A DNA stretch of 59,555 nucleotides from a virus (Duplodnaviria; Caudoviricetes), in IMG/VR virus record IMGVR_UViG_3300050343_000001, positions 1 to 59,555 of that record; one strand, written 5' to 3'. The notes beneath the pieces are model-generated. The model was given only the letters and a program-made list of their open reading frames with translations. It made no database searches and was not told where the DNA came from. Every line of letters starts with the position of its first letter. Positions within the stretch are counted from its first letter, which is position 1. The translations under genes were made by a program, and so were the position numbers. This document shows, in pieces, positions 6,570-54,858 of the stretch.

Positions 6570-6595
6570 GCCCCTGCTTCGGCGGGGGCTTTTTT
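6570..6595 (+). terminator. Rho-independent terminator where the two arms converge
   Basis: GCCCCTGC-TTCG-GCGGGGGC-TTTTTT. Confidence 0.85.
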
Positions 6596-36326: not shown

Positions 36327-37232
36327 TTACGCGCCTTGTGATCCGTAGATACCTAATGGGTCAGAAACACCGAAGCTGTAACGCTCACGCGCTTTGTAGC
36401 GCACGTTGCCAGTGTCGAAGTCTCCATCCATTCCTGTAGCCATCGCAGAACGTACGAAGTGCTTCATACCATTAGGGATGTCTGTAGTCAGGAACCAAGC
36501 GTCAGCGTCTGTAAGATAATGGTTTACGCCATATCCTTCAGCAACTGCACCGTTAGAGCTGATTGCATTGATATCGTTATCCGCTGTACCTACACGTAAA
36601 GTTGTTTCCAACAAACGAGTTGCTACGAACTGTAACGCAGACGGGATGATTAGCTTTCTAGCGCGAGCTGCGATAAGTAAGCCACGTTCGTCTGTGTATC
36701 CACCAATGTCGATAATCGCTTGTTCAAGCGAAGTCTCGTTAAGGTCAGCACTAACCGCTGGACGGTTAGAGTTTGTACCGCCACCAACTGTTGGGTGTGC
36801 AGTGTTGAACAATGTTACACCATCACCAGACTGGAAAGTGTCAAAGCCCGTGTTGAGCAATGAGGCGGCTTTAACCTGCTTAGTGTATGCCATAGCGCGA
36901 GCTAAAGCTTTTGTGTAACGTGAGGACAAAGAATCGTACAAGTTATCTTCCATCGCTTCTTCAGTGATGGCGAAACCCATAGCGATAGTTTCGTGTGTGT
37001 AGCGAGCTGTGAACGCCTCTTGCGCATTATCGTACGCAATAGATGAACCTTCAGCCTTTGTTGGTGCTGCACCGAAACCAGACAATTTAACTTCTTCTTC
37101 AAAGCTACGCTCTGAATTTTCTGTCTCATAGATGTCCGCGTGTTCGTTTTCGTATTTGCCGTACTCAAGCCCAAATAAGGCATTAAGTCCGGGTAAGAGC
37201 TCTTTAAGCGCCTGTGCGCGTGAAATAGCCAT
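36327..37232 (-). CDS. Major capsid protein
   Basis: 301 aa; follows scaffold; KARERYSFGVSDP C-terminal pattern; strong RBS AAGGAGG; own terminator. Confidence 0.85.
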   Translation of the reverse strand: MAISRAQALKELLPGLNALFGLEYGKYENEHADIYETENSERSFEEEVKLSGFGAAPTKAEGSSIAYDNAQEAFTARYTHETIAMGFAITEEAMEDNLYDSLSSRYTKALARAMAYTKQVKAASLLNTGFDTFQSGDGVTLFNTAHPTVGGGTNSNRPAVSADLNETSLEQAIIDIGGYTDERGLLIAARARKLIIPSALQFVATRLLETTLRVGTADNDINAISSNGAVAEGYGVNHYLTDADAWFLTTDIPNGMKHFVRSAMATGMDGDFDTGNVRYKARERYSFGVSDPLGIYGSQGA

Positions 37233-37915: not shown

Positions 37916-38344
37916 TTACCGCGAACTACGCTCAGGTTTAAGCATAGGCATCCGCGGGTCAGACTCACGCATGTAGTTTCTATCGACAGCCTCAGCCTGA
38001 TTTTGTGCAGACTCAAGTTGACCATGAATACGATCATCTCTTAGTTCGGTCGGGATAGCGCAAAGCAATAACCCACCAACTTCGATATTGTCTTTAAATC
38101 GAGAATCAATATCTGACATGATGTGTAGCTCAGGATAATCCACTGCCTTTACGGGCACATAGCCATCACGAAACCTCCCAGAGACATTTGTCATATCTGC
38201 GTTACCCAATGTAGATGTGCGAATCCAGCGAAACGAAAGTCCGTCTCGTGGTTCGGGGGTAGGTAGCATTGACGAGCGCTTCCAAGGTTTACGACGTTCT
38301 CCCGCTTCGCGGGTTTCGGTTGTACGTGGTTTTCTATCAGCCAT
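37916..38344 (-). CDS. Head-module hypothetical protein
   Basis: FRWIR...GY.PV...VGGLLLC. Confidence 0.65.
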   Translation of the reverse strand: MADRKPRTTETREAGERRKPWKRSSMLPTPEPRDGLSFRWIRTSTLGNADMTNVSGRFRDGYVPVKAVDYPELHIMSDIDSRFKDNIEVGGLLLCAIPTELRDDRIHGQLESAQNQAEAVDRNYMRESDPRMPMLKPERSSR

Positions 38345-39296
38345 TTTGCATATCCTTTAGCTTTTGCGCCGCATATTCTTTATTAGATAATCCAAGGCGC
38401 TTGGCGATTGCGGCCTCAGATGAGGTGATGACAACTTTATTGCGTGATGCGGCGGTACTTCTACCGCCCGGGGCCACCACGGAGCCAGCTTTACGTTGTG
38501 GTTGTCGAACCTCTGGTTCCACGTCCGCAAAGCGATCTGGGTATCGAGACCGCATGGCCTCGTTTATCTTACTATAGTACACATCTGACGTAGAATCAAC
38601 GCCTGTCTCTAATAGTTCTTCATGTATGAGCATAGCATACCTTGTCATGCCCGTGTCTTTCTGGAACCAATCGTTCTCAGCTACCCATTCCTGTGCCTTA
38701 CGATCTGGTACAGGAACACGAGGCGCTGCTTGCGGTGCTGGAGCTTGAGACTGGTCTTGTACAACCCTCTCTGCTGGTTTCCAGTTTTCTACACGATCAG
38801 CTTCAAGCTGTAGCTTAGACAATGACATTTGCGCTTCAAGCACAGCATCGGTGTCCCCAGCTTCATAAGCTTCTTTGTAGGCGCGTTTAGCACTATTAAG
38901 TTCTGATGCTACTCGTGCCTTGGCTTCATTAACCAATACACCTTCACCTTCAGAAAGATTTTTACGGAGACGCGCTGCTTCGTTCTTCTGCGATTCTGCA
39001 TACTGAACTGCCACTTCACGTTCGCGTTCAGCTTCTTCCTTACGACGACGTTCTTCGTGATACTCGAACTTTAGCTTCTTGATACGCTTCTGTACCGAGT
39101 CGCTGTGCTTCTCAAGCTCTTCGTCTTCTGGGATATCCGCCTCGGCATCAGCTGCCCTACGCGGGCGACCTTTGTCCTCTTCAGGAGTATCGTCAGCGAT
39201 TTCGACTTCAAAATCATCTTCACCTTCAACGTCTACTTCTAACGCTCCGGTCTCTACTACTGTGTCTTCAACGACTGTTTCTAATTCTTCACTCAT
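38337..39296 (-). CDS. Capsid scaffolding protein
   Basis: Acidic N-terminus, coiled coil, C-terminal AIAKRLGLSNKEYA; between portal and capsid. Confidence 0.7.
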   Translation of the reverse strand: MSEELETVVEDTVVETGALEVDVEGEDDFEVEIADDTPEEDKGRPRRAADAEADIPEDEELEKHSDSVQKRIKKLKFEYHEERRRKEEAEREREVAVQYAESQKNEAARLRKNLSEGEGVLVNEAKARVASELNSAKRAYKEAYEAGDTDAVLEAQMSLSKLQLEADRVENWKPAERVVQDQSQAPAPQAAPRVPVPDRKAQEWVAENDWFQKDTGMTRYAMLIHEELLETGVDSTSDVYYSKINEAMRSRYPDRFADVEPEVRQPQRKAGSVVAPGGRSTAASRNKVVITSSEAAIAKRLGLSNKEYAAQKLKDMQNG

Positions 39297-39661
39297 GCTC
39301 TACTGTACCCCCGTGGGTCTTCGACTACCGCTTCAACAGTATCGTCGTTGATAATACGGAACTCTTTGTTATGTAATTTAAAACGTGTACCTGAATACGA
39401 ACGGAAGATGATAAAATCACCTTTTTCGCACCAAGGTCCATTCGGGAACCGCTCTTTATCTGTATAGGCTTCTTCACCTATACTGATGACATATCCAATA
39501 ATGGTCGCGGTTTCTTCCATTTTGGTTAAAGAATCGGGCATATAAACACCGCCATCTGTCTTGCCTTCAAGTTCTGGTATTGCGATAAGCAGCTTATAAC
39601 CTTTCGGTTCGGGCAATTTTGCCAGTAGTTGCTTGTCGTCTACTTTGTCGGTAGCGTACAT
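39293..39661 (-). CDS. groES: Co-chaperonin GroES (Cpn10)-like protein
   Basis: P.GYKLLI, KTDGGVYMP mobile loop, GDFIIF..YSGT, RIINDD. Confidence 0.85.
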   Translation of the reverse strand: MYATDKVDDKQLLAKLPEPKGYKLLIAIPELEGKTDGGVYMPDSLTKMEETATIIGYVISIGEEAYTDKERFPNGPWCEKGDFIIFRSYSGTRFKLHNKEFRIINDDTVEAVVEDPRGYSRA

Positions 39662-39746: not shown

Positions 39747-39935
39747 CTAATCTTCAATATACCTTTGTTCAATATCTTTAACATCATTACGTATAATAGT
39801 TAATGCTTCATACTTCCCTACTAGCTTCCAGTAGGTCTCTTGGTCTTTAGCGCCGCCCTCTGCGAGATGTTCGGCGATAGATGTGCGACTTTCTTCAAGT
39901 CGGGTTAGTACATGGTGAAATACAGTATCAGCCAT
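39747..39935 (-). CDS. Hypothetical protein
   Basis: Overlaps portal stop; short helical protein. Confidence 0.6.
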   Translation of the reverse strand: MADTVFHHVLTRLEESRTSIAEHLAEGGAKDQETYWKLVGKYEALTIIRNDVKDIEQRYIED

Positions 39936-42360
39936 CTAAGTTCACTTTCTCTGCAATATCTAGGGCTAGGCGGGCTGCAGATTCTTTCTGGTCTGTTTCA
40001 AGCTCGGCCACCTTAACGCCGATACGTGCCGCCTCTTTCTCTTCCTCAGAGTCGATACGCGCTTGTTGTAGTCGGGCGTTCTCTTGTTTAGCCATAGCGT
40101 CGATGTTTACTTTCAGCTTGTCCATCTCGATCTTATGTTTCAGCTCAGTCTCTTTAATCATCAACTCACGCTGCTGTATTTGAGTAAGTGGGTCGGCTTG
40201 TTGTGCCGCTGCTTTCTCTGCAGACGCTTCAGCTTGGTCTTTCTTGAACAACTTCTCTGCGGCTTGTGCAGCTAGACGTGAAACTTGAAGTTCTACATCT
40301 TCTGGTAGCGGTGCCTCTGGGTCTGGTAGTTCTACACCCAACTGTTTCTGTATCTCCACACGGTACTGCAGGGCTACGTGTTCCGTAATATGGGACATCA
40401 TAGCAGACTGAATTGCGCTTGCGAACGGTGATTGTCCCACAATTTGCATGATCTTAGGGTCTTGCATCGCCATCATGTGTGTCTGGATGTGCGCTTCGTG
40501 GTCTTGGTAAGCGAAAGGTTTGACTGGTTCTTGTTTAAGAATAGCCATATTCTCCGTTACTGGGTCAGCAGGTTTAATATCATCTGGTAATTTAATGATG
40601 TCCTCCGCATCCTTGATGCCTAGAACCTCTAACATTTGGCGATGTAGTTTGCCCATGTCGTACATTTGAGGTGCTTGTTGCGCTAACTGTAGGGCTGCTT
40701 GGTACTGCATTATGCGCTGTGCCATTGTAGCTGCGTTAGGGTCAGATACCGGAATAACGTCCACCCGACCATCAAAGTCAGATATACGGTCTGCAGGTTC
40801 ATCCATCTCGTACGCATATTCAGCGGGCATGTAGTCATGTACGATCCCAGCTAAGATACGAAGCTCTTGTTTCATAGCTGCGTGTAAGCGAGCCTGAATA
40901 CCAGACATAACCTGCATAGAACGCTCCATAAGCGCCAGAGTTGTGCCTACAGGAGCTTGGGCGTTGATATCACCCACTTGTATGTCACCTACAGCTCCAA
41001 TACGTCTTCCCTCGTCTACGACGTTGCCTAAAAGACTGTAAAGTACGCTTGATGGCTCTTTATAAGGTAATGGAACAATCGCATCCTTAATAGTACCTGC
41101 CGGTACATCTACATCTCGGAACTCACCGGGCATGATGGGAGTGTTGTCCCCGGTGATACGCATGCCTCGGGCTTTAAAGCCTGCAGGGAGGTTAGACAGC
41201 GTACCTGCGTCAATAAGTTGGCGCATGATGGAGGTGGCAGACTTTGTAAGGCCACCAAGCGTATGTATAAGCCCTGTGCCGTAGAAGCCCATACCGGGCA
41301 AATACGGGTAGTGTACGACGTGCATACGTTTCTCACGTTTGCTATCGTCTTCGTACCAATTTCGGCGAATAGACAGGACGATGCTAGATGATTTATCAAC
41401 TGTCACTACGTAAGGTAGCGCAACGCCATCTATATCGTCAAAAGGTTCCGGCAAGTCTAAATCTACGTGCATCTCTAAGATAGTATGTCGTGGATCGTCA
41501 GAGAAAGTAGGTTCAGAACCTTCTAGCTCGTTGTATTTTTCTTCAATGTCAGTAACATCCCTAGTTGCTTCAGGGAGCTCAACATCACGATAGAACCCGT
41601 TAACCTGTAGCTTGAGTACTTCTTCAGGTGTCTTCTTCATAACGTGCGTAAACCGCGGGGCTGTACGTAAGTTAGACGCACCGTAGGACACTACGAGGTC
41701 TTCTGCAGGTACAAACTGGGATACAGGACGTTCTGTAATAGGATCGAAGTATATTTTCTTGAACGCAGAGCCCGCCATAGGTAATTTAAACAGCATCTGC
41801 TCCATTTCGTCACGATAGTCGGGCATTTTCTCAGTGATGAGGTAGTTAAGTTCAGTCTCGACACGTTGTGCCTGCTCAAACTTCTCAGTTGTTACTTTGC
41901 CTACAATCTTACTACGTACTGGGCCTGATGCTGGAAGAAGTTCCCCCATCGCTTGTGCTTGGAATTTAACCACTGCCTCGGTCATCATAGGGTGGTACAC
42001 GCCAGAAGCACCGTTCCACGGCTCCGTACGCTCCTCCACTTTCATCCCTAAAAGGTCCATACCCTTAATATAGGCACTAGCCCACTCACCACGAGACTCA
42101 CGATCAGATGAAAAATGTTCTATCAGTTCGTTTGCTATTTCTTCTAGTTCGTCATCCTCAATGTATTCGGCGAGGTTAGAGTCGTGAGAGACATCTTCGT
42201 CCATTTCAGGAGTGTCGCCAAACTCAATAACAACTGATCCATCGTCCATTTCGACTTCTACAGCCTCGGGGTCTTCTACTACGACCGTTAGATCGGGGGA
42301 TAAAGACTCCTCGGATGTTTCAAGGATATCACTAGGTTCCATAGGTTTTTCGACTGCCAT
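39928..42360 (-). CDS. Portal protein
   Basis: 810 aa after TerL; GSAFKKIY, RQLIDAGTLSN, PGEFRDVD; Gln-rich helical C-terminus. Confidence 0.85.
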   Translation of the reverse strand: MAVEKPMEPSDILETSEESLSPDLTVVVEDPEAVEVEMDDGSVVIEFGDTPEMDEDVSHDSNLAEYIEDDELEEIANELIEHFSSDRESRGEWASAYIKGMDLLGMKVEERTEPWNGASGVYHPMMTEAVVKFQAQAMGELLPASGPVRSKIVGKVTTEKFEQAQRVETELNYLITEKMPDYRDEMEQMLFKLPMAGSAFKKIYFDPITERPVSQFVPAEDLVVSYGASNLRTAPRFTHVMKKTPEEVLKLQVNGFYRDVELPEATRDVTDIEEKYNELEGSEPTFSDDPRHTILEMHVDLDLPEPFDDIDGVALPYVVTVDKSSSIVLSIRRNWYEDDSKREKRMHVVHYPYLPGMGFYGTGLIHTLGGLTKSATSIMRQLIDAGTLSNLPAGFKARGMRITGDNTPIMPGEFRDVDVPAGTIKDAIVPLPYKEPSSVLYSLLGNVVDEGRRIGAVGDIQVGDINAQAPVGTTLALMERSMQVMSGIQARLHAAMKQELRILAGIVHDYMPAEYAYEMDEPADRISDFDGRVDVIPVSDPNAATMAQRIMQYQAALQLAQQAPQMYDMGKLHRQMLEVLGIKDAEDIIKLPDDIKPADPVTENMAILKQEPVKPFAYQDHEAHIQTHMMAMQDPKIMQIVGQSPFASAIQSAMMSHITEHVALQYRVEIQKQLGVELPDPEAPLPEDVELQVSRLAAQAAEKLFKKDQAEASAEKAAAQQADPLTQIQQRELMIKETELKHKIEMDKLKVNIDAMAKQENARLQQARIDSEEEKEAARIGVKVAELETDQKESAARLALDIAEKVNLDG

Positions 42361-42539: not shown

Positions 42540-44120
42540 TCAATAATACGCCGCCCTGCGATGTAAATACGAATCATCGTCTTCCATATCCGTAGGTAAG
42601 CGGATAAATCCACCCTGACGGAATCTTAGGAGAGCCATGACCGTGCTATCGACCAAGTCATCGTTCGACATGAACGGAAACCCAGCCACTTCTTCTACAA
42701 GCTCGTCCGCCCAGCGTGTCGCCGGTACCCAGACCATGCCTGAAGATATAATATCTGATACAGAGTTGAGCCTTGCCAGCTTATCACCAGTCCCCCGGTG
42801 GGGTGTATACTCGGTGACGGGCAGTCCCATGCGTCTCATCTCTTGATAAAGTGCAACTCCAGAGCTTTTCTTCTCCACAATGAACGCATCAGGGTCCCAA
42901 TGTCTGTAGTTTTCCATCGCCAACTCTTTGAGTTCGGGAAATTCTAGCCGTTCTTTTATGCTATCAAGTAAAATAATGTTGTGTGAGCCTGATTCTTCGT
43001 GAAAGAACACGCCCCAAGTGGTAAGTGCGGTGTAATCGGCCCTATTATGCTTCTCTGCGGCCGCATCTAAGGACATAATCACGTACTCAACGCTTGGCAT
43101 AGTGTCATTTTCCCATATATTCCACCATTCACGCTTAACAATCGACGCTTCTTCGGACGTGGGCTGCTGTTGATACTGCGAGTTCCACTGGAACGCAGGC
43201 ATCGAAGCCTTGGTTCGTTCTAACGCAGGGAGATCAAAGAACTCCGGCCACAAAGGTTTCTGTATTGGCTTACCATCTTTGTCCTCAGAGTCTAAAATAG
43301 CTGGAAACTCAACGATTTCGTACTGATCGGCCATCTCATTCTTGACCATATCGTTGGTTACACGCCCTGTCAGGTCGTCCATATGCCATCTAGTCTGCAC
43401 GATAGCTACACGCCCGCCGGGCATTAGCCTTGTTCGCGCTCCGAAGGTAAACCATTCGTAAGCTTTTTCAAAGACAGAAAAGTTCCCGTTGATAACATCT
43501 TGTTCAGAGTGTGGGTCGTCGACCAGCAATAGGTCAGCGCCACGCCCAGCCAAAGCAGAACCAATACCACACGCAAAATACTCTCCTCCAAAGTTTGTAT
43601 TCCATCTCCCCGCTGATTTACTGTCCACCGCAAGAGAAACCTCCGGGAATATGGACTTATAGTCGTCTAAGGCGATCAAATTACGGACTTTACGTCCAAA
43701 ATCCACCGCCAAGTCTGTGGTGTGCGACACCATCATTACTTTCTTATCAGGATTCCGCCCTAAAAACCAAGCGGGGTAAAATATTGACACGAGCTGCGAC
43801 TTACCATGACGCGGGGGTATGTTTACGCACACCCTGTCCTTACCATCCTTAGCTGTCGGCCCACGTTCAACGTCCATTAACATGTTTGCAAGTATGCGGT
43901 GATGCCTCCCAACCTTATAATCTGGCTGCATCCGCTTGCAAAACTCTATCAGATCGTCGTGCGCGGCCTTGTTTGTCTGCCGTGAGGACAATTCCCCCAC
44001 GATTGAGTCTATCTCGACCAGCTCTTCAGGACTAAACGAGTCTAGATTGTCCAATATGTGCTGGATATCCTCCGGAGAGAAATCCATATCTTTAGCTAAA
44101 CTAGCTAAATTGTCAGACAT
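42540..44120 (-). CDS. terL: Terminase large subunit
   Basis: PPRHGKS Walker A, LLVDDP Walker B, QTRWH, nuclease DAA...DLVDS. Confidence 0.92.
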   Translation of the reverse strand: MSDNLASLAKDMDFSPEDIQHILDNLDSFSPEELVEIDSIVGELSSRQTNKAAHDDLIEFCKRMQPDYKVGRHHRILANMLMDVERGPTAKDGKDRVCVNIPPRHGKSQLVSIFYPAWFLGRNPDKKVMMVSHTTDLAVDFGRKVRNLIALDDYKSIFPEVSLAVDSKSAGRWNTNFGGEYFACGIGSALAGRGADLLLVDDPHSEQDVINGNFSVFEKAYEWFTFGARTRLMPGGRVAIVQTRWHMDDLTGRVTNDMVKNEMADQYEIVEFPAILDSEDKDGKPIQKPLWPEFFDLPALERTKASMPAFQWNSQYQQQPTSEEASIVKREWWNIWENDTMPSVEYVIMSLDAAAEKHNRADYTALTTWGVFFHEESGSHNIILLDSIKERLEFPELKELAMENYRHWDPDAFIVEKKSSGVALYQEMRRMGLPVTEYTPHRGTGDKLARLNSVSDIISSGMVWVPATRWADELVEEVAGFPFMSNDDLVDSTVMALLRFRQGGFIRLPTDMEDDDSYLHRRAAYY

Positions 44121-44961: not shown

Positions 44962-44976
44962 GTAGTTTAAAACTAC
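44962..44976. promoter_or_regulatory. GTAGT-N5-ACTAC operator-like palindrome
   Basis: GTAGTTTAAAACTAC upstream of the first early gene. Confidence 0.7.
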
Positions 44977-45081
44977 ACTCGCGATACTGTGACATAACAC
45001 ACACAAACAAGTATACTGGTGTTATCAAAAGCGAAACATGATGTGACGCTACGATAAAATATTCTATGAAAGGAATATAAA

Positions 45082-45690
45082 ATGACTAAAACTAAAACAA
45101 ACCAAAAGATCAATAAATCAAACGTGGTGTTAGGAGAAAAGTTTCTAACACTATTACAAGAGGATGGCGACGCGCAAACAGCTGGCAAGCTAAAGCGCGG
45201 CGAGCTTATAACTCAGGCCATGGACGATGGTATCGACTTTACAAGTAAGACAATGTCTAAAGAGCAAATAATAGAAGTTAAAGCTCTTATTGCTTTACGC
45301 CATCCTATAGCGGCTCAGGAATTACTAAAAATGGGCGCGGCAAAGGCAGATGGCGCAATCGCGGCAGACCATGATGGTAATCGTTTTACTAGCCAAGGTA
45401 GAGCCAAAAATTGGAACTACTGGAATAGTAGACAAAAAGACATCTTTAAGAAATTAGGTGAAGCGGTTGTTGCTCGCAATATCAAAAAGGCTCGTATCGC
45501 AGAAGGTGGCAACCAATCAAGAGGTCTAGTCGAGCGTCTTGCTACTGAATGTAACAAGCTTTTCAACGCGGTTGTTAGGGCAGACGTTGACACATTGCCA
45601 GATGATTTCGATACCTTGGAAGTAATTGCAGGTTTCAAGACCATCGCAAGAAATTCTGGATTTCAATTAGTAAAGAAATCTAAAAAGTAA
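45082..45690 (+). CDS. Hypothetical early protein
   Basis: AAGGA RBS, 202 aa. Confidence 0.75.
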   Translation: MTKTKTNQKINKSNVVLGEKFLTLLQEDGDAQTAGKLKRGELITQAMDDGIDFTSKTMSKEQIIEVKALIALRHPIAAQELLKMGAAKADGAIAADHDGNRFTSQGRAKNWNYWNSRQKDIFKKLGEAVVARNIKKARIAEGGNQSRGLVERLATECNKLFNAVVRADVDTLPDDFDTLEVIAGFKTIARNSGFQLVKKSKK

Positions 45691-45700
45691 AACTTAACTT

Positions 45701-45720
45701 GGAGCGGCCGCGGCCGCTCC
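45701..45720. repeat. Perfect 20-bp GC-rich palindrome
   Basis: GGAGCGGCCGCGGCCGCTCC. Confidence 0.85.
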
Positions 45721-45751
45721 TTACTAACATTCAAATACAGGAAACAAAACA

Positions 45752-46012
45752 ATGTTAAAAGAATTACCTTATACTGTCGGAGATCAAGACCTAATTGACG
45801 AAAGATGGCATTGGAACCGCATCGGTAAAGTAATGATCGGTGTTATGATCAAATGGGATGACGAAAAGTTTGATAGGTTTTTTAATGCAATCAAACCGCA
45901 ATTACCGCCAGACGAAGTCGAAGAAATTTTAAATCGTCGTGCATGGTATACTTCGTGCCATGATATATTAAAACAACCTAGCCAAATGTCTTTTACATTT
46001 ATGCCAAAATAA
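45752..46012 (+). CDS. Hypothetical early protein
   Basis: AGGA RBS; followed by terminator. Confidence 0.7.
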   Translation: MLKELPYTVGDQDLIDERWHWNRIGKVMIGVMIKWDDEKFDRFFNAIKPQLPPDEVEEILNRRAWYTSCHDILKQPSQMSFTFMPK

Positions 46013-46018
46013 CTACAC

Positions 46019-46049
46019 GCGCCGAGCCGAAAGGTTCGGCGCTTTTTTT
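46019..46049 (+). terminator. Rho-independent terminator
   Basis: GCGCCGAGCC-GAAA-GGTTCGGCGC-TTTTTTT. Confidence 0.9.
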
Positions 46050-46068
46050 GTGTCTTTTTTTGCGGAAG

Positions 46069-46297
46069 CCAGTTCTCTGAATAGCTTCGCGTCACAGAGC
46101 AATCGGCTTTGTTGCGATGCTTACTAAAACATGTAGTTACAAACTACACTGTGGAAACCAGTTCTCTGAGTAGCTTCGCGGATCATGTGTACTTCGTGTG
46201 TACATCTCCTCGTATGTTTATGTATGTTAACTCATCGGGCCCGTTACGTGTAGTTTTAAACTACGAGACGTATACCAGTTCTCTAAGTAGCTTCGCG
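46069..46297 (+). repeat. Three 23-bp direct repeats CCAGTTCTCTRARTAGCTTCGCG with a palindrome in each gap
   Basis: Copies at 46069, 46158, 46275; GTAGT-N5-ACTAC at 46133 and 46250. Confidence 0.9.
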
Positions 46298-46329
46298 GAG
46301 CAACATGTACGCAGATGCCTTGTTTTTAT

Positions 46330-46605
46330 AATGTTCCATTATAATGTTCCTAATGTTCCACAAGAAGTTCCATAATAGGCAAAAATAAGTCATTGATTTT
46401 ATTACAATGTTCCTAATGTTCCTAATGTTCCCTATAAAAAAATATAGCACTACGTACGCGACCCCCTCTATAATGAAAAATCAACGGAACATTTGGAACA
46501 TTGGAACATTCCAATGATTTCAAGGACTTACAGACACCCTAAATGGAACATTATAAAACCCGATTGGAACATTGTAATCATATCAATAACTTAGCACGGA
46601 ACATT
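46330..46605. repeat. Iteron-like array (6 AATGTTCC then 6 inverted GGAACATT) with IHF-consensus sites; putative origin
   Basis: Forward 46330, 46343, 46352, 46406, 46415, 46424; inverted 46486, 46495, 46503, 46545, 46566, 46598. Confidence 0.8.
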
Positions 46606-46691
46606 ACCTTTTAACCCTGTAGTTTAAAACTACGTCACACAACCTCGCAATACCTGACGATACCTGACACAACAGGACACGCTCAGAAAGC

Positions 46692-46720
46692 TTGACATTG
46701 GCCGTATACTATGGTATAGT
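46692..46720 (+). promoter_or_regulatory. Near-consensus sigma70 early promoter flanked by palindromes at 46619 and 46783
   Basis: TTGACA-N17-TATAGT with extended -10 TG. Confidence 0.85.
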
Positions 46721-46834
46721 AGTATATGTTCTGGAGTGATAGTCAACATATCGGCTCTCTCTTCAGACTGTATCTACTTCGTGTAGTTACTAACTACTAA
46801 TCAAAACTAACTAATCAAACCAATGGAGATTATC

Positions 46835-47047
46835 ATGCCTATCAAAGCTCACTGCATATCATGCGACCAACCCTACTCACAACGCCGAAAAGAATTGGGA
46901 TACAACTTCTGCCTAGACTGTGGCGAATACCAAGCGACTAAGCAACGCGCAGGTTGGTGTGTCGCACCTATCGCGCACAAGCAAGGCGCAACACTTGTCA
47001 CCAACTTCAACGACCTCAAAGGTCTCAACAAATACACGGGAGAGTAA
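46835..47047 (+). CDS. C4 zinc-finger protein (DksA/TraR-like finger)
   Basis: CISC...RRKELGYNFCLDC; GGAG RBS; first gene after the promoter. Confidence 0.65.
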   Translation: MPIKAHCISCDQPYSQRRKELGYNFCLDCGEYQATKQRAGWCVAPIAHKQGATLVTNFNDLKGLNKYTGE

Positions 47048-47048
47048 G

Positions 47049-47297
47049 ATGAAGTTCGAAAACTACAGCGTGGTGAAATGCCCTATGGGTATATCTATCA
47101 AACCTAACAATGGTGACAGCGATTTAGAAGTAACCTTAACTATAGAAAATGATACTCTACACGTAACTTTGCACGCACACGACAATGATTGGTGTGGCTC
47201 TGACCACATCGTAAGTGAAGCTCGATACCCAATCAAACATTACTGTGAATGTCACGCAACATACCAAGACTGTGGCTATCAGGATTGTTGCAGATGA
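47049..47297 (+). CDS. Hypothetical protein (start MKFENY)
   Basis: GGAG RBS; Cys-rich C-terminus. Confidence 0.55.
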   Translation: MKFENYSVVKCPMGISIKPNNGDSDLEVTLTIENDTLHVTLHAHDNDWCGSDHIVSEARYPIKHYCECHATYQDCGYQDCCR

Positions 47298-47524
47298 TGA
47301 AATTCTGGACAGTACTTCTACTGACGTATCACGCAGGGTCTGACGATGTCGAACCTATGACTTCAAGTATCCTGTTACCTTCGATGGAAATATGTGGCGA
47401 TGTGATGGACGACTTCTATCCAACTATATTCGCGCACTATCCTGACAGCATGGCTCAATGCCTAGAAACCGCCGAGGCTTCAACAACTATGACAAGCCCA
47501 ATGCCAAAACTAAGACCGTTCTAA
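47294..47524 (+). CDS. Hypothetical protein (start MMKFW)
   Basis: ATGA overlap; Cys pair. Confidence 0.55.
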   Translation: MMKFWTVLLLTYHAGSDDVEPMTSSILLPSMEICGDVMDDFYPTIFAHYPDSMAQCLETAEASTTMTSPMPKLRPF

Positions 47525-47535
47525 AGGAGAACATT

Positions 47536-48453
47536 ATGAACAACGTACACCAACTAACCGCCGAGTGTAGTCAACAACTACACACAGATGCACCAACACT
47601 TGGCTCATCTGCAATGCTCGTAGAAGTCAACATCTCTACATGGGCAGGTCGAAAGAAAGACAAGCGGGCTTCCGCTGATGTCGCTTCCGCGAACCACGCC
47701 GACAAAGAGGTTGCTAACGTGATCAAGAAGTTACTCGCTAACTCTGACACACTCAAAGCAATACAGACACATGTCACCGCGGCTCGCAACATGCACTCGA
47801 ACATGACGATGCCTTGGTCTAACTCTGGGCTACGTCTGTTACCTACAGCGCAATACTTCAACTACAGCGAAGCTATGTCGCAAATGCAGAATGAGTTCGA
47901 AGCACTCAAGACTAAGTTTCTAAATTCGTACAACGACGAAGTAATAAACGTACAGCTAAAGCTCGGCTCGTTGTTCTCGCGTGACGACTATCCCACGATT
48001 GAAACACTCGACAGTAAGTTTGCTTTCCGTATGAACTACATGCCATTGCCAGATGTCGGTGACTTCCGTGTCGATGTGGGTAATGAAGCACTACTCGAAA
48101 TCAAGCAGAAGTATGAGGACTTCTATTCCAAACAATACAATACAGCTATGAATGACGTGTGGACACGTTTGCACAAGGCACTGACAAATATGTCTGAGCG
48201 CCTAGACTACAGCGGTAAAGAGGACAAGAAAGTATTTCGTGATACGCTCGTTGGTAATGTCACTGACATGATAGAACTACTACGTGTGTGTAATGTTACG
48301 CAGTCTACCCAGATGTCCGACATGGCAAACAAACTCGAAGATGCAATGTCTGGTGTATCCGCCGTGGTATTGCGTGACGACAATACGTTCCGCGTCAGAA
48401 CCAAAGCGAAGGTCGACGACATTATCAAATCACTACCATCATTAGATATATAA
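47536..48453 (+). CDS. Helical phage protein (DUF3150-like)
   Basis: AAGGAG RBS; H...TMPW..SG.RLLP, F..DDYP motifs; precedes AAA ATPase. Confidence 0.6.
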   Translation: MNNVHQLTAECSQQLHTDAPTLGSSAMLVEVNISTWAGRKKDKRASADVASANHADKEVANVIKKLLANSDTLKAIQTHVTAARNMHSNMTMPWSNSGLRLLPTAQYFNYSEAMSQMQNEFEALKTKFLNSYNDEVINVQLKLGSLFSRDDYPTIETLDSKFAFRMNYMPLPDVGDFRVDVGNEALLEIKQKYEDFYSKQYNTAMNDVWTRLHKALTNMSERLDYSGKEDKKVFRDTLVGNVTDMIELLRVCNVTQSTQMSDMANKLEDAMSGVSAVVLRDDNTFRVRTKAKVDDIIKSLPSLDI

Positions 48454-48471
48454 ACAAGAAGGAAGAACAAC

Positions 48472-49566
48472 ATGACTAATCAAACACACGCAATGTATCA
48501 CATAGATTTACCACAATGCGTCGATCTTATCGTAGGCGTAGCTAAAATACGAACCGTACTCGCACAGGGTCATATGGGTAGTGGCAAATCATCTATGTTG
48601 GATATGGTAGCAGAAAGACTACCGAACCATCGCAAAGTATATTTCGACGCAACCACAAAAGACCTCGGTGACATTATGATACCGTCTTTGCAGTCTATAC
48701 AAGAAGAAGGTTGCGTCCGTATGATTCCTCACGAAGAACTCGGTCTACATATAGACGGGCCGATTATTCTTATGCTCGACGAGTATGGCAAGGCGAACCC
48801 TGCAGTGAAGACCGCTATGCTACGTCTGATGTTGGAACGTAAAATGGGTAGTTACAAACTACACCCTGACAGTGTTGTCTTTGCTACAACGAACATGGGT
48901 AGCGAAGGAGTTGGTGACATACTACCACCACACGCACGTAACCGTATAACTGTAGTACAGATCAAAAAGACTAATAACATGGATTTGATTGAATACGGTA
49001 TCAACAAGAATTGGGATCACAGCCTACTTGGTTGGCTCAAAGACAACCCACACTTGATGCACTCGTTTGAAGATGTGAAAGACCCAGACGAAAACCCATA
49101 TATCTTCCATCCAAAAGCGCAACGTGCCGCCTTTGTTACAGGTCGCTCACTCGAAGCCGCGTCTGACATACTCAAAGCACGAGCAGGGTTTGACGATATT
49201 ACTCTGACCGCCGCATTGATAGGTACGATTGGTGATCGCGGTGCGATGGACTTGATGGCGTTTGTGTCACTATCCGATCAGCTACCTACCTTGCAAGCTA
49301 TCAAAGACAATCCAAAGAGTGCCAAAGTACCTGACAGCGCCGCCGCCATATGTATGGTTGTGTATAGAACTCTGTCCGCGTTGGACAAAGACTGGCTCAA
49401 CAGCTGGATGGATTACTTGCCGCGCCTCGATACCGAAGCACAAGCTATGTTCGCTAATGGTGTACGCGCACCGAAGTATTCAAAGCAGTCAATGGTTATG
49501 ACTAACAAGAAGTTCACCGAGTGGGCTATGAAGAACAACCACCTATACACAGCAGATAAAATATAA
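48472..49566 (+). CDS. MoxR-type AAA+ ATPase
   Basis: GHMGSGKS Walker A, LMLDE Walker B, ATTN sensor, NR finger. Confidence 0.85.
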   Translation: MTNQTHAMYHIDLPQCVDLIVGVAKIRTVLAQGHMGSGKSSMLDMVAERLPNHRKVYFDATTKDLGDIMIPSLQSIQEEGCVRMIPHEELGLHIDGPIILMLDEYGKANPAVKTAMLRLMLERKMGSYKLHPDSVVFATTNMGSEGVGDILPPHARNRITVVQIKKTNNMDLIEYGINKNWDHSLLGWLKDNPHLMHSFEDVKDPDENPYIFHPKAQRAAFVTGRSLEAASDILKARAGFDDITLTAALIGTIGDRGAMDLMAFVSLSDQLPTLQAIKDNPKSAKVPDSAAAICMVVYRTLSALDKDWLNSWMDYLPRLDTEAQAMFANGVRAPKYSKQSMVMTNKKFTEWAMKNNHLYTADKI

Positions 49567-49577
49567 GGAGAGATATA

Positions 49578-49940
49578 ATGGGTAAACGATGGACAGATAA
49601 AGAGGACGGTATCCTCGAAACACTACGCGATGGTGGCATGACCTTTGAGGAGATTGCTTCCGTAATGGGTCGCACAAAGCAAGCAGTACAGCAACGTGCG
49701 CATATGTTGAAACGTAACGAGCCTACGTTTCGTGAAGTTGTGGATACAGCTTTTGAGAAGCACGGTATCGAGTTCGGTGAACCTGATCAGGAGCTTAAAG
49801 AGCTATTACCCGGAATCAATGCCTTATTCGGTGAACCTGATAAGCCGTTGCCGAGAATACAATACATGCTCAGTCAAATGGAAAGAGACTTAAAGCCGAA
49901 GCCGCAGTGGTGGAAAGCTATGATGTGGTGGAGGAAATAA
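49578..49940 (+). CDS. GcrA/Myb-like HTH protein containing a copy of the capsid N-terminal peptide
   Basis: WTDKED..L..L...GMTFEEIASVMGRTKQAV; QELKELLPGINALFG. Confidence 0.75.
   Translation: MGKRWTDKEDGILETLRDGGMTFEEIASVMGRTKQAVQQRAHMLKRNEPTFREVVDTAFEKHGIEFGEPDQELKELLPGINALFGEPDKPLPRIQYMLSQMERDLKPKPQWWKAMMWWRK
49773..49841 (+). repeat. 15-bp direct repeats flanking a capsid-gene-like segment
   Basis: TTCGGTGAACCTGAT at 49773 and 49827. Confidence 0.9.
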
Positions 49941-49941
49941 C

Positions 49942-50223
49942 ATGAAATATTGGATCGCAAATATTGATGAACGTAATGGGGAGTTTGAGTACGAGCAAAC
50001 TATAATATTCACAGCCGCAACCAAAGCGGAAGCTGACGATACGCATGAGTTTTATGCAAGTACATGGTACGGCGAAGACAATATGCGGTGGGACGAAGAC
50101 GATAATTGTTGGTGGAACGAACCCGTTGCTGTCACTGAAGGTCGTATGACCGAGATTGATGAACACACGTTCGATCAAATACGTAAACATGGTCTGCCAG
50201 ACCTAACAAGAAAGGGAGCATAA
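49942..50223 (+). CDS. Acidic hypothetical protein
   Basis: GGAGG RBS; operon packing. Confidence 0.65.
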   Translation: MKYWIANIDERNGEFEYEQTIIFTAATKAEADDTHEFYASTWYGEDNMRWDEDDNCWWNEPVAVTEGRMTEIDEHTFDQIRKHGLPDLTRKGA

Positions 50224-51495
50224 ATGCTAGCAATCAAACAACTAACTGAGGAGCAACGACTAACAAAAGCCGTTGTATCTATTATGAGTAGCCCGAAGTA
50301 TGTCGCACTCGCAGGGGTGCTAATGATCGGGGAGCGTTCTGTAGTGGACGACCCGAGCGTACCGACGGCATGTACCAATGGACGTGACGAGTTCTACGGA
50401 CGTGAGTTTGTAAGTAAGCTCAACGATGCCGAGCTTAGATTTCTGGTGTTGCACGAAGTGTACCACAAGTTGTTCCGTCACTTGACCACATGGAAACATC
50501 TATACATGCAAGACGCATACCTTGCGAACGTAGCGTGTGACTACGTGATCAACCTAAAGATTGTAGATGATAACTACCAAGATGGGTTTGCTACTATGAC
50601 AGGCGAACTTTCAAAAGGTTGCTATGATCGTAAGTATGTGGGTATGGACACCGCGCAGGTGTACAACTTGCTACGTAAAGACCAACCGCAAGGCGGCGCG
50701 GGTCGTGGTGGTGTTATCGTAATCGGTGATCCCGAAGATGGTGATGGTACACCGCAGAACGGTAGTGGCTCACTACCTGATGGACAAGAACCATTCGATG
50801 CACATGATTGGGAAGGCGCACAAGAAATGACCGCCGACGAACAACGTGATCTTGCCAGAGAGATTGACGAGGCAGTACGTCAAGGTGCATTGGTTGCAGG
50901 GAAGATGGGCAGTGGTGGTGATCGTGACCTAGAAGCATTGCTAGAACCACAAGTCGATTGGCGTGAAGTGTTGCGTGAGTTTGTGCAGACTACATGTACA
51001 GGCAGTGACTACTCTACATACCGCAGACCTAATCGTAGGTATCTGAGTAGTGGTATCTACATGCCAAGTGGTGTCAGTGAACAGGTCGGGGAACTGGTGG
51101 TCGCAATCGACACGTCTGGATCAATCGGTCAGGAAGAAATCACCGCGTTTCTTTCCGAGGTCAAAGCAATATGTGACACGGTACACCCAGATAAAGTACG
51201 TCTGTTGTATTGGGACACACAGATATGTTGTGACGAGACGTATGAAACGCACGAACTCGATACACTCGTACAATCTACTAAGCCGAAAGGCGGTGGTGGT
51301 ACAGATGTAGAATGTGTGACTGAGTACATTCGTGAAGAAAGCATCAACGCGCAAGCATGTATCGTGATTACTGATGGCGACCTATACAGTGGTTGGGGTC
51401 AGTGGACTATGCCTGTGTTGTGGTGCGTTATCGACAACAAGCACAAAGTGCCAGACGTAGGTAAATGTGTACACATAAAATCGAGGGACATGTAA
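50224..51495 (+). CDS. Metallopeptidase-VWA protein (DUF2201-like)
   Basis: PTACTNG, HEVYH, N.ACDY.IN, MIDAS DTSGS, GGGGT, ITDG. Confidence 0.85.
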   Translation: MLAIKQLTEEQRLTKAVVSIMSSPKYVALAGVLMIGERSVVDDPSVPTACTNGRDEFYGREFVSKLNDAELRFLVLHEVYHKLFRHLTTWKHLYMQDAYLANVACDYVINLKIVDDNYQDGFATMTGELSKGCYDRKYVGMDTAQVYNLLRKDQPQGGAGRGGVIVIGDPEDGDGTPQNGSGSLPDGQEPFDAHDWEGAQEMTADEQRDLAREIDEAVRQGALVAGKMGSGGDRDLEALLEPQVDWREVLREFVQTTCTGSDYSTYRRPNRRYLSSGIYMPSGVSEQVGELVVAIDTSGSIGQEEITAFLSEVKAICDTVHPDKVRLLYWDTQICCDETYETHELDTLVQSTKPKGGGGTDVECVTEYIREESINAQACIVITDGDLYSGWGQWTMPVLWCVIDNKHKVPDVGKCVHIKSRDM

Positions 51496-51947
51496 TGGGG
51501 TATCGTAGTGAAGTGCATATTGCTGTAGCCTTTGACAGCAAGAAAAACATGGACGAAGTCATAGCGGCGTACGCCTTGAACATAAATGTAGAGAAGCACA
51601 ACTTAGTAAATGACTGGGTCATAAAAGACGACAACATTCTGTATTTCCACGCAGACCATGTAAAGTGGTACGACAACTACGAGTGGGTGCAGGGCTACGA
51701 GTATATGTTCGAGCTTGTGAAGGAGTTTTGTGAGGCGCGAGGTTTTTCTTCCGCCTTCCGCCTCTTGCGTGTTGGTGAAAGCGACGACGATGTAGAGGAT
51801 AGGCACGATTGGTTTGATGGCGATTATGAACATAACGCCGACGACGATCCCCTCTTTGAAAATGAAGACGACGATACAGACACCACGTTGATGGACAAGC
51901 TAATGCTAAATATGGAGATTGTGAGAAAGGTAGAGGTAACACTATGA
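51495..51947 (+). CDS. Acidic hypothetical protein (start MGYRSEV)
   Basis: TAATG coupling; VKWY, RVGE..DD. Confidence 0.65.
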   Translation: MGYRSEVHIAVAFDSKKNMDEVIAAYALNINVEKHNLVNDWVIKDDNILYFHADHVKWYDNYEWVQGYEYMFELVKEFCEARGFSSAFRLLRVGESDDDVEDRHDWFDGDYEHNADDDPLFENEDDDTDTTLMDKLMLNMEIVRKVEVTL

Positions 51948-52165
51948 GTAAGATTGGCAACTATGTAGTAGGACTACAGGAGCAAGAGATTTTCATCGAA
52001 TGTCCTGAGTGCAAAGACACAGACCGACAGGGCAAAGTTACAGGCGAGGAGTTCAAGTGGACAGGTGACATGTACGAGCCGTTTGAAACATGGGTTGATT
52101 GCGAAAACTGTAATGGACTTGGGGAGATCGAACGTGACTTCGACGACGATTCGTGTGGGCAATAA
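51944..52165 (+). CDS. DnaJ-type zinc-finger-like small protein
   Basis: CPEC...G...CENCNGLG. Confidence 0.65.
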   Translation: MSKIGNYVVGLQEQEIFIECPECKDTDRQGKVTGEEFKWTGDMYEPFETWVDCENCNGLGEIERDFDDDSCGQ

Positions 52166-52222
52166 ATGCCCACGCAGATGCTTTAAACTAAACAATAACA
52201 TTTAACAACAGGATAAAAACAA

Positions 52223-53308
52223 ATGGCACTAACATATTCATCATTCAGTAGCTTTGACGACGTAGTTTATAACTACGAAAACACAAAGCCAATGGGCGGT
52301 AGCACTAACAAGGGTAAAGATATCAGACCCATAGGTGATCGCAAACGTAAGTACGAACGTATCGTAAAGATCAGCAACAACTGCTACGCACTATCAGATG
52401 GCTTTCACTTTGGCGACGCACACTTTAATTGGGGTTGGGGCTATACAGCTTCTGCTGAGTATGTACCTACACTAAAGGACATGGAGAAGTATGCACCTAT
52501 CATATGGCGCAAGAAACGTGATGGCACAGAACAAGTCACAATACGCAACGGGTATGGAGATCATGCACACAACTCACGTTATGCTTTTATAAACAGACAC
52601 ACACCGAGAGGTTTGGGGTTCACTATTGCTAGCGGCAAACAGTACATAACTAAGACAATGGGTAGGTATCCTGACCATAGGCATGATGAACGGTACTATC
52701 TAGCCAAGACCCATACCGCACCGCGTGTTATCTACGACCACATAAAAGATCAGCTGAACGCTAGTTGGTATCAAGAGAACGCTAAGAAGTGGGTCATGTT
52801 ACACGACGACAACTCTGCCTTAGTGTTCAACAAAGCCGAAAGTAAAGATCGGTTCTCTGGTATTGAGTGGGTACATGTTGAGGGGACAGGACGCACACTG
52901 CCGAAAGCGCCGCGTGTGAACATAGAACTCAAAGCCAAGTACAAGGACTCAATCAAAAAGTTTTTCGAATGGGGTATGACTATGTCACCGCTAATGCCAT
53001 TGGAGGACAACGAGTACCTACACAAACACAATCAAGACTTGGTTGAAGCCTATGGTCACGTAAGGGGCAACTATTGGCGTAAGGTAAACGCAAGTATAGG
53101 ACGTGAAATTGTACGAGGCGAAAGACACCCTGTACGACTAGCGTTTTGGGTAGAGTTTGCCAAACAATGCTACGCGCCAGACGAGCAGAGTTGGAGTTTC
53201 AACAGTACGCCGTTGCTGACTAAAATAAAAACCAAAGAAGATATTTCCCATGTACGGGCATGCTTCAACAGATTTATCAACACAGAACTTGGGTTCGTAA
53301 CAAAGTAA
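52223..53308 (+). CDS. Hypothetical protein
   Basis: 361 aa, AGGA RBS; palindrome at 52262 inside the 5' end. Confidence 0.75.
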   Translation: MALTYSSFSSFDDVVYNYENTKPMGGSTNKGKDIRPIGDRKRKYERIVKISNNCYALSDGFHFGDAHFNWGWGYTASAEYVPTLKDMEKYAPIIWRKKRDGTEQVTIRNGYGDHAHNSRYAFINRHTPRGLGFTIASGKQYITKTMGRYPDHRHDERYYLAKTHTAPRVIYDHIKDQLNASWYQENAKKWVMLHDDNSALVFNKAESKDRFSGIEWVHVEGTGRTLPKAPRVNIELKAKYKDSIKKFFEWGMTMSPLMPLEDNEYLHKHNQDLVEAYGHVRGNYWRKVNASIGREIVRGERHPVRLAFWVEFAKQCYAPDEQSWSFNSTPLLTKIKTKEDISHVRACFNRFINTELGFVTK

Positions 53309-53319
53309 GGAAAACAACT

Positions 53320-54210
53320 ATGAGTGACTTAGAATTAAAATTAGTAAGAGATTTAGAAAAACCAAACCCAGATGATAAGGTGTATACACCTAATCTAGAT
53401 GTGCAGATGATGGCAGATGCACTAACCAAAAAGGTTCGTGGTTACAAGACCGCGCCTAAAAGTTGGGAATCCATATGGGTTTACAGGCCGCAAGATACCT
53501 ACGCTATGGGTTGGATAAGATACGCAGACGTGTTTGAAGGCGGTACAGGTGACAAGCGGCATGCTGTTTATTCGCCTAACATACAGAACGGCAAGTACTC
53601 GTATGGGGATAATTGCTTTATGTCTTCAGCACTGCATTTCAACAAGGGGTTACTTAACGCATGTAAATACCTACGCCCACCAACCGCAAAGCAAGTTGTG
53701 GAACAAGTGCAAAGGGATTTTGCTAGAGGTGTGTCTCGTTCGTTGGACGAAGTAAAGACCAAGGCGCACAAGATAACGAACAAGATCGACACCGATGTAT
53801 TTGGTAGGACACGCCTAAACACTGCACCTCTTAAAAGAGAACTCGCTAACATACTAAAGTCAGACTATGAGTTTCTCGACAAAGAACTTGAAGTGCAACT
53901 AACCGAAGCCTTTGAAGCGGTTAAGGAGCTACATGATGGCAGAGATATACATGATAGAGACCACACATTTATTGAGGTCATACAAGCTCAAGGTGCTAAT
54001 CTATATCGAGGCTTCAAGAGAGTAAGCCAAAGCTACTCACTGTTTCGTCACGACGATAGCGCTGAGAACAAGATAGTGTACACACAGGAAGAACTACCAG
54101 AGAACCTACTCGGTGCGATGTCTGTGCTATCTATGGTCGAGGAAGATCAGTATGTTGCAGGTGTTGGGTATCGTGCAGGGGCAAATATGTTCTACATTAA
54201 AGGCGAGTGA
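53320..54210 (+). CDS. Hypothetical protein (start MSDLEL)
   Basis: AAGGA RBS. Confidence 0.7.
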   Translation: MSDLELKLVRDLEKPNPDDKVYTPNLDVQMMADALTKKVRGYKTAPKSWESIWVYRPQDTYAMGWIRYADVFEGGTGDKRHAVYSPNIQNGKYSYGDNCFMSSALHFNKGLLNACKYLRPPTAKQVVEQVQRDFARGVSRSLDEVKTKAHKITNKIDTDVFGRTRLNTAPLKRELANILKSDYEFLDKELEVQLTEAFEAVKELHDGRDIHDRDHTFIEVIQAQGANLYRGFKRVSQSYSLFRHDDSAENKIVYTQEELPENLLGAMSVLSMVEEDQYVAGVGYRAGANMFYIKGE

Positions 54211-54470
54211 GTGTGGGAACAACTGACACTATCACGTACCGCGTGACAATACATCCTACTACAAATAAGGTTAATGTAATGTCTTTTGATCTAGACGCTA
54301 TTGACGCGACAGGTTTAGGAGTATATGACACTATAAACCAAACACCTAAATGGATCAGGGAGCGCATTGCTACACTTATGCTTGTTGATCCTACACCACC
54401 GACTGAACCAATAGAAGGTGTAGGTCATAGGATCGACAAAACTACTTATTGGATTTACGCTGATCGGTAG
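54207..54470 (+). CDS. Hypothetical protein
   Basis: GTGA overlap; PKWIRERIATLM...GVGHR echoes the C-terminus of the preceding protein. Confidence 0.65.
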   Translation: MSVGTTDTITYRVTIHPTTNKVNVMSFDLDAIDATGLGVYDTINQTPKWIRERIATLMLVDPTPPTEPIEGVGHRIDKTTYWIYADR

Positions 54471-54549
54471 TTACTAACTACTATTTTAACTTTGGGGGGC
54501 GGACATCTGCCCTCCATCGAAGCCAGTTATTTTTACATGGAGACTATCA

Positions 54550-54858
54550 ATGGCAACAACACCAGAAGCTAAAGTAAAGAAGGTAGTTACAAACTACTTA
54601 AAGAAGATGGGAGCATACTACTTCTACCCTGTTACGGGTGGATTTGGACGAAGCGGCGTACCTGATATAGTCGCATGTTACAAAGGGTTGTTCCTTGGTA
54701 TTGAATGTAAAGCAGGGAAGGGGAAAACTACCGCACTACAACAAAAGAACCTAGACGATATTAAAACAGCAGGGGGTTTTGATTGGGTCGTAAATGAAAC
54801 AAACATGCACCAAACAGAAACACAGATTAAGTATTGGGCATCAACACAACAGGAATAA
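54550..54858 (+). CDS. VRR-NUC-type nuclease / Holliday junction resolvase
   Basis: TPEAKVK, GVPDI, IECKAG, TALQ. Confidence 0.85.
   Translation: MATTPEAKVKKVVTNYLKKMGAYYFYPVTGGFGRSGVPDIVACYKGLFLGIECKAGKGKTTALQQKNLDDIKTAGGFDWVVNETNMHQTETQIKYWASTQQE

Follow-up and report, generated by a model that had tools for sequence, protein, structure and literature searches.

The stretch of DNA analysed here (the window) is a complete virus record of 59,555 bp. Its major capsid protein is 66–74% identical to the capsid proteins of the Pelagibacter phages HTVC023P and HTVC027P and of the Planktothrix phage Pag-Yong1. The capsid, scaffold-like, Cpn10, portal and large terminase genes lie on the minus strand, and replication-type genes are found on the plus strand from approximately 45 kb (Table 1). 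The gene under study encodes a putative 120-aa early-region regulator and belongs to a trio, in which it directly follows an AAA ATPase gene and precedes a DUF2201 peptidase-VWA gene.

Between the regulator and VWA genes lies a 93-aa ORF (49942–50223), which is missing in several relatives. In locus L048 the VWA gene directly follows the regulator, and contigs from sequencing runs X6 and X14 part from the window at 49944 and continue at once with a VWA-like start. The 93-aa ORF matched nothing in Pfam, PHROG or PADLOC and appears to be an inserted small gene. Elsewhere in the window, the non-coding region 46040–46640 contains three copies of a 57-nt repeat, 9-nt tandem units (46338–46431) and a 28-nt inverted pair (46386/46566), and is a candidate origin or early control region. 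A 2203-aa ORF on the minus strand (6594–13205), with LPD39 as its sole domain match (E 4e-9), probably encodes a large virion or ejected protein.

Table 1. Positions of the features in the window, and sources in the window of sequence patches found in the hinges of regulator homologues
Feature	Position	Strand	Basis or remark
Major capsid protein gene	36327..37232	-	Pfam Phage_capsid_4, E 1.3e-12; Mu-like_gpT
Capsid codons 7-21, copied stretch	37171..37214	-	Donor is the window's own capsid gene or a relative's
Capsid N-terminus patch			tblastn; 5/111 clusters, four at E 2e-4 to 4e-4, the fifth frameshifted
Scaffold-like acidic coiled-coil protein	38337..39296	-	Upstream of capsid gene
Cpn10 homologue	39293..39661	-	Upstream of capsid gene
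Portal gene	39928..42360	-	PHROG 1216
Portal patch, source	41494..41515	-	tblastn, E 5e-4 to 5e-3; 2/111 clusters
Large terminase gene	42540..44120	-	Upstream of capsid gene
15-nt palindrome sites (44962-54597)	44962, 46133, 46250, 46619, 46783, 48848, 52262, 54467, 54583		Nine copies
AAA ATPase gene	48472..49566	+	Directly before regulator in AAA/regulator/VWA trio
AAA patch, source	49414..49455	+	tblastn, 11/14 residues, E 0.014; 2/111 clusters; protein level only
Regulator gene (120 aa, early region)	49578..49940	+	ORF with upstream Shine-Dalgarno-like word
First 15-bp direct repeat copy	49773..49787	+	Single copy kept in relatives without insert
Capsid-derived 39 nt (codons 7-19), in capsid frame	49788..49826	+	39/44-nt match, blastn-short
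Second 15-bp repeat copy	49827..49841	+	First 5 nt match capsid codons 20-21 at 4/5 (microhomology junction)
Conserved C-terminal module	49842..49940	+	Homologue alignment; predicted helices at residues 92-103 and 110-119
DUF2201 peptidase-VWA gene	50224..51495	+	Third member of AAA/regulator/VWA trio
VWA patch, source	50626..50685	+	tblastn, E 0.003-0.04; 11/111 clusters
Antisense match	52237..52266	-	10/10 residues, hinge of 3 clusters; E 0.22, not significant alone

The 120-aa regulator is predicted to comprise an N-terminal three-helix helix-turn-helix domain, a hinge and a Trp-rich C-terminal helix. Residues 3–46 match PHROG 323, 'transcriptional regulator' (E 2.6e-10). A match to Pfam Sigma70_r4_2 reached 21 bits, under the cut-off of 25.7, and NCBIfam gave no match for the protein. 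In an AlphaFold2 model built with 67 aligned sequences, helices were predicted at residues 7–18, 23–30 and 34–44 with pLDDT 77–87; past residue 45 the pLDDT was 51–65, and in the cassette described below (residues 71–88) approximately 51–56. Foldseek returned weak matches only (E at least 0.046), to Myb-like, Tc3 and LuxR-type domains, and nothing in the PDB at E up to 0.001. A sequence search of the PDB had designed repeat proteins as its sole matches. A DNA search of a phage collection with 48400–51600 yielded no match, and tblastn of the same collection with the regulator yielded just three weak matches at 25% identity. PADLOC, which covers defence and not counter-defence proteins, gave no match for the regulator or the next ORF. 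In one clade of relatives (loci L015, L017, L022 and L087–L105), a basic amphipathic tail replaces the Trp-rich C-terminus after the same hinge, which suggests that the C-terminal helix can be swapped as a module and may serve to bind a membrane or a partner.

Within the hinge-coding part of the gene, positions 49788–49831 are identical at 39 of 44 nt to the reverse complement of 37171–37214, which encodes capsid codons 7–21. The initial annotation had reported this match, and recomputation returned the same value with sharp edges, the similarity breaking off abruptly at both ends. With blastn-short, searched against approximately 0.6–0.75 Mb of related phage DNA, the copy gave E 1.6e-7 and 4.5e-9. 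A repeat search of the window ranked the capsid/regulator pair (44 nt, 89% identity) first in length among 219 inverted pairs, the remaining listed pairs measuring 22–32 nt. The 15-bp word previously reported to bracket the copy was found on the plus strand at 49773 and 49827 only, and never on the minus strand. Also borne out were the preserved frame, which is identical in the regulator ORF and the capsid gene, and the nature of the five base differences: one changes Ala to Glu, two in a single codon change Leu to Ile, and the rest are synonymous. Synonymous base differences make up 2–3 of the five, which at n = 5 is not significant (approximately p = 0.1, binomial estimate).

The same insert was found in two more public contigs, L001 from IMG/VR and L047 from a marine metagenome. 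The flanks of L047 are 97.4% and 98.3% identical to those of the window, with 100% identity in the gene's N-terminal part, indicating a second genomic background. Sequencing runs were examined as assembled contigs, not as raw reads, and the insert was spanned by contigs from X6 (647 nt, no differences), X8 (1357 nt, one difference) and X14 (192 nt, no differences). Of these, X8 may be the run from which the window itself derives. At least 83% of the words sampled from 49300–50200 were present in 14 DNA runs from 13 studies (24 runs listed). The initial annotation had advised a check for misassembly. Nothing beyond the general risk of metagenome assemblers joining repeats speaks for an assembly chimera or sequencing artefact, which we reject, as far as assembled contigs allow, as extremely improbable, given three contigs from different data sets, three spanning runs and four further protein variants that carry the structure.

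The alignment of homologues, suggested in the same annotation as a way of learning whether the insert is present or variable, found it to be variable. In L002–L005 exactly 54 bp are absent and one 15-bp copy is retained. The insert-free form is also encoded by L051–L053, L055, L057, L058, L061 and L064; despite its absence, two of these, L055 and L057, show 99.8% identity with the window over 509–512 bp rightward of the insert site. L007, which belongs to record G001, carries an unrelated 84-bp cassette after the same base. The capsids of G001 and of a further record without the capsid copy, G004, are 98% and 99% identical to that of the window. In run X14 a second contig tracks the window to 49787 and then diverges, and the RNA run X15 contains the insert-free form of a relative's gene, for which DNA carry-over is possible.

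Homologues of the regulator formed 111 clusters of 79–164 residues, among which 40 different lengths occur. The N-terminal domain through a Phe-Gly-Glu-Pro-Asp word and the Trp-rich C-terminus are conserved across the clusters, and the stretch between them is a mosaic built from more than fifteen types of cassette. In some hinges the conserved word is duplicated in tandem. Between clades, the DNA identity is 64–66% in the N-terminal part and 86–90% from the repeat word to the stop codon, a step at the word, which indicates that it is also a junction of homologous exchange. A frameshift just after the hinge is present in seven of the 111 clusters (P0057–P0060, P0063, P0067 and P0108), whose C-terminal module is read in a different frame; sequencing errors, gene decay or alternative products may account for this.

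To trace the sources of the hinge cassettes, all 111 clusters were compared by tblastn with the window, in which the regulator gene had been masked (Table 1). Clusters bearing the capsid cassette include P0001, P0002, P0003, P0005 and the frameshifted P0108, and the cassette occurs with three different downstream cassettes and two N-terminal alleles. The VWA cassette was also recognizable in DNA (57 nt, 68–77% identical to VWA genes, best E 1.2e-7), and its differences from the source are mostly non-synonymous, which is what a lack of constraint would produce. For the portal patch, the hinge of L060 contains a 22-nt exact match to the source in the portal gene. A match to the minus-strand reading of 52237–52266, which adjoins a dispersed palindrome at 52262–52276, would be an antisense capture.

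The commonest cassettes, C, D and E, could not be traced to a source: a tblastn search of six related phage records and 19 loci with the 111 homologues as queries gave none, and neither did a word-based search among longer proteins, the latter being weak evidence. Cassette D, the commonest (31 of the 111 clusters), aligns with residues 36–78 of the acidic portal N-terminus (42130–42255, minus strand) with a score of 49–50 and a shuffle p of 0.001–0.005 for this comparison, which was chosen after the fact. The DNA comparison of cassette D with the portal gene gave no support (p 0.02–0.99), and the resemblance is either an old capture or an effect of composition.

At the right junction of the capsid patch, 4 of 5 nt are shared with the window's capsid gene and 6 of 6 with the capsid allele of G002, and the left junction shares 2 nt. 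At the patch end, the Phe-Gly codons of the capsid gene meet the Phe-Gly codons that open the 15-bp word. The portal patch consists of 12 nt between homologies of 7 nt and 3 nt, the VWA patch has an Asp codon on one side and Asp-(Gln/Lys)-Pro codons on the other, and the AAA patch terminates, at the protein level, with Met-Phe in place of the Met-Leu of the hinge. Each of the four patches has its homologies in the same reading phase in donor and target. Glu-Pro codon words like those at the hotspot are slightly more frequent in the window than expected (49 copies of one 6-mer, compared with approximately 29), so that, in an acid-rich proteome, microhomology partners are plentiful. For the window's clade, the DNA at the hotspot folds no better than shuffled sequences (z −0.9 and −0.7); without a significant hairpin, the term 'hotspot' may reflect tolerance as much as breakage.

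We consider it probable that microhomology-mediated templated insertion created the insert, and that the hinge, which is prone to recombination, tolerates it as a heritable change. During copying, the growing strand would exit the regulator gene at the end of the 15-bp word, copy 39 nt of a capsid gene, and re-enter via the shared Phe-Gly codons, 15 nt upstream of the exit point. Because of this upstream return, 15 bp would be copied twice, creating the direct repeat, and because the homologies are in phase in donor and target, the patch would be read in the capsid's own frame. The pathway might alternatively be described as short-patch ectopic repair. The product would survive since a flexible hinge between a DNA-binding domain and a C-terminal helix may tolerate almost any in-frame insert. 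We infer both the template-switch pathway and the lack of a function of the peptide itself. Microhomology capture had been among the interpretations offered by the initial annotation, and it fits the junctions and the family pattern; the decoy, poison and transcription-link interpretations offered beside it received no direct support from any result.

Among capsid homologues (the best 120 of at least 8000, a sample biased towards the query), the capsid stretch varies at residue 8 alone, where A or L is found. The cassette has Glu at capsid residue 8 and Ile for Leu, neither of which occurs in these 120 capsids, and cassette variant P0003 retains Leu. The copy therefore drifts where the barely varying capsid stretch does not. 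This drift, the absence of the insert from relatives with 98–99% identical capsids, and the location of the cassette in the low-confidence hinge speak against the earlier idea of a decoy or assembly poison. A complex prediction with the C-terminal 95 residues of the scaffold-like protein and residues 58–100 of the regulator scored 0.00, which counts neither for nor against binding.

In related phages, the hinge also holds palindromes. In L008, L009 and L014, clade-specific palindromes of 19–21 nt recur 8–10 times per contig (for example, L009 6116–18670), and many copies outside the hinge sit 4–6 nt before an ATG. One copy of each palindrome type is in frame within the regulator hinge in these loci and in G002, whose type recurs solely as close variants. 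The window has a 15-nt palindrome (6-nt arms, 3-nt centre), in place of which the relatives carry other clade-specific types. Its copy number (Table 1) compares with 0.02 expected, and all copies lie in the early region; 3–4 are in frame inside ORFs (the AAA gene, 52223–53308 and 54550–54858), and none is in the regulator gene. This palindrome may serve as an operator or a processing site, or it may be a hairpin that is mobile. Classification of the window cassette as a dispersed palindromic (RPE-like) element was rejected, since the cassette is a capsid fragment. In G002, the first 15 codons of a scaffold-like gene (9541–10623) together with 6 nt upstream (10526–10578, minus strand) resemble the word-bearing part of the regulator; the resemblance is approximately 70% over 53 nt, with E 8e-4 to 7e-3 per query, borderline after multiple queries.

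Several observations count against reading the insert as a scar of templated insertion, and some of them favour selection on the peptide. The capsid, portal and VWA patches in DNA, and the AAA patch in protein, are all in the donor's sense frame, an outcome of approximately 1-in-30 to 1-in-80 if the frame were random (about half of the six frames being open). This bias may stem from the in-phase position of the microhomologies and from conserved frames being easier to detect. The capsid cassette persists in five of the 111 clusters, in two backgrounds and in 14 runs from 13 studies. The 2–3 synonymous differences out of five also count against a scar, though they would be expected as well from a diverged capsid donor, the commonest cassettes C, D and E are without a found source, and no hairpin or other structure in the window's clade accounts for breaks concentrating at the hinge.

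One rival explanation holds that the hinge displays self-peptides, presenting pieces of the capsid N-arm, portal, VWA and AAA proteins to a partner that binds, titrates or senses them. The sense frame of every gene-derived patch seen in DNA, the occurrence of the capsid cassette with varied neighbour cassettes and in two backgrounds, the weak likeness of the commonest cassette to the portal N-terminus (shuffle p 0.001–0.005), and the position of the regulator gene between the AAA and VWA genes are all in keeping with it. We nevertheless judge it unlikely. The cassette is missing from relatives whose capsids are 98–99% identical, it has two substitutions unseen in the best 120 of at least 8000 capsids, and it falls in a low-confidence part of the AlphaFold2 model; the VWA patch evolves about neutrally; and the translated palindromes and the apparent antisense patch in the same hinge cannot be mimics. 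In addition, PADLOC gave no match, and the portal resemblance is absent in DNA. Such a display might arise through recurrent in-phase capture, with variants kept if their motif binds the partner of the parent protein, for which a scaffold, a chaperone or chaperonin, a protease, the MoxR-VWA pair or a host sensor would be candidates; we regard this route, too, as improbable. A functional role is retained as a minority reading on two grounds: the patches are biased to the sense frame, and the cassette has persisted in several combinations.

Diversifying selection on the hinge as such, for example for escape from a host factor, would make the origin of the letters irrelevant. The more than fifteen cassette types and 40 lengths among 111 clusters, the co-occurrence of variants within one sample, and the mostly non-synonymous differences between cassettes would agree with such selection. 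The counts are small and compatible with neutrality, however, and some cassettes are near-identical in DNA across clades, which points to exchange and not to continual change. We know of no host factor for the regulator hinge, and give this explanation a low probability.

A role at the nucleic acid level is very unlikely. The 44 nt, which match the 5' part of the capsid coding sequence at 89% identity and lie inverted to it, could in principle provide an RNA decoy or antisense target for the 5' end of the capsid mRNA, or support inversion of the intervening 12.6 kb; but the regulator and capsid mRNAs have the same sense and cannot pair, the compared relatives G001 and G004 are without the copy, and other cassettes derive from internal gene parts.

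Three known kinds of element were rejected as well. No reverse transcriptase was found in the 28 window ORFs scanned, and the differences are not adenine-specific from template to copy, which excludes a diversity-generating retroelement. A CRISPR-like unit is excluded by the presence of just two 15-bp copies, in frame inside a gene, and of no cas family among the scanned ORFs. A transposon with target-site duplication is excluded because the insert is 39 nt of a phage gene and no transposase family was found among the scanned ORFs.

In the modular theory of phage evolution, genes are exchanged at conserved boundary or linker sequences. The regulator hinge resembles such exchange in that a conserved DNA word parts regions of different history (64–66% and 86–90% identity); it differs in that the junction is intragenic and the units are cassettes of 12–120 nt, not genes. 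Capsid sensing is known from defence systems, in which Lit acts with the Gol peptide of the T4 capsid and CapRel senses the major capsid protein. The likeness to these systems is confined to the involvement of a short capsid-derived peptide. Here, by contrast, no sensor, toxin or defence context was seen at the regulator, and it is the phage itself that carries the peptide, within its regulator; close relatives do without it, and its sequence has diverged from that of the capsid.

The preferred reading, a templated insertion by microhomology, has parallels in template switching. One report describes template switching that created new protein sequence in the Saccharomyces cerevisiae lineage (PMC8604942), and a second report, together with the first, describes template-switch mutagenesis at quasipalindromes or inverted repeats in bacteria and yeast (PMC7202029, PMC8604942). 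The cases share with the regulator hinge an ectopic short copy, junction homology of a few bases, duplication at the return point and new in-frame coding sequence. They differ in that the donor here is 12.6 kb away in another gene, not a nearby imperfect repeat, and in that the same bond took patches from at least four genes across the phage family.

Rickettsia palindromic elements are inserted in frame in protein-coding genes, according to a MITE review (PMC10969869). The in-frame palindromes in the hinges of relatives, and the window's 15-nt palindrome in 3–4 ORFs, are similar to these elements. They differ in that the Rickettsia elements are approximately 150 bp long and the palindromes here 15–21 nt, and in that the window cassette is a gene fragment. 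No account of the regulator gene or its hotspot was found in the literature searched on the phage group (including PMC9599517), templated insertions in phages, in-frame palindromes and template switching, supplements excepted, which may hold gene tables.

The hinge provides a clean natural example, in an abundant ocean phage group, of short ectopic copying that makes new coding sequence. One can see the donor, the unoccupied site, the homologies at the junctions and the drift that followed, as well as repeated hits on the same bond across the gene family. The example also carries a caution, that striking self-similarity need not mean function. If self-peptide display were true, it would represent a new viral route to peptide mimics of a virus's own proteins, by which early regulation would be coupled to assembly, or a host factor blunted by a decoy. 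As it stands, the hinge is a concrete site for measuring the rates and the tolerance of templated insertion in phages.
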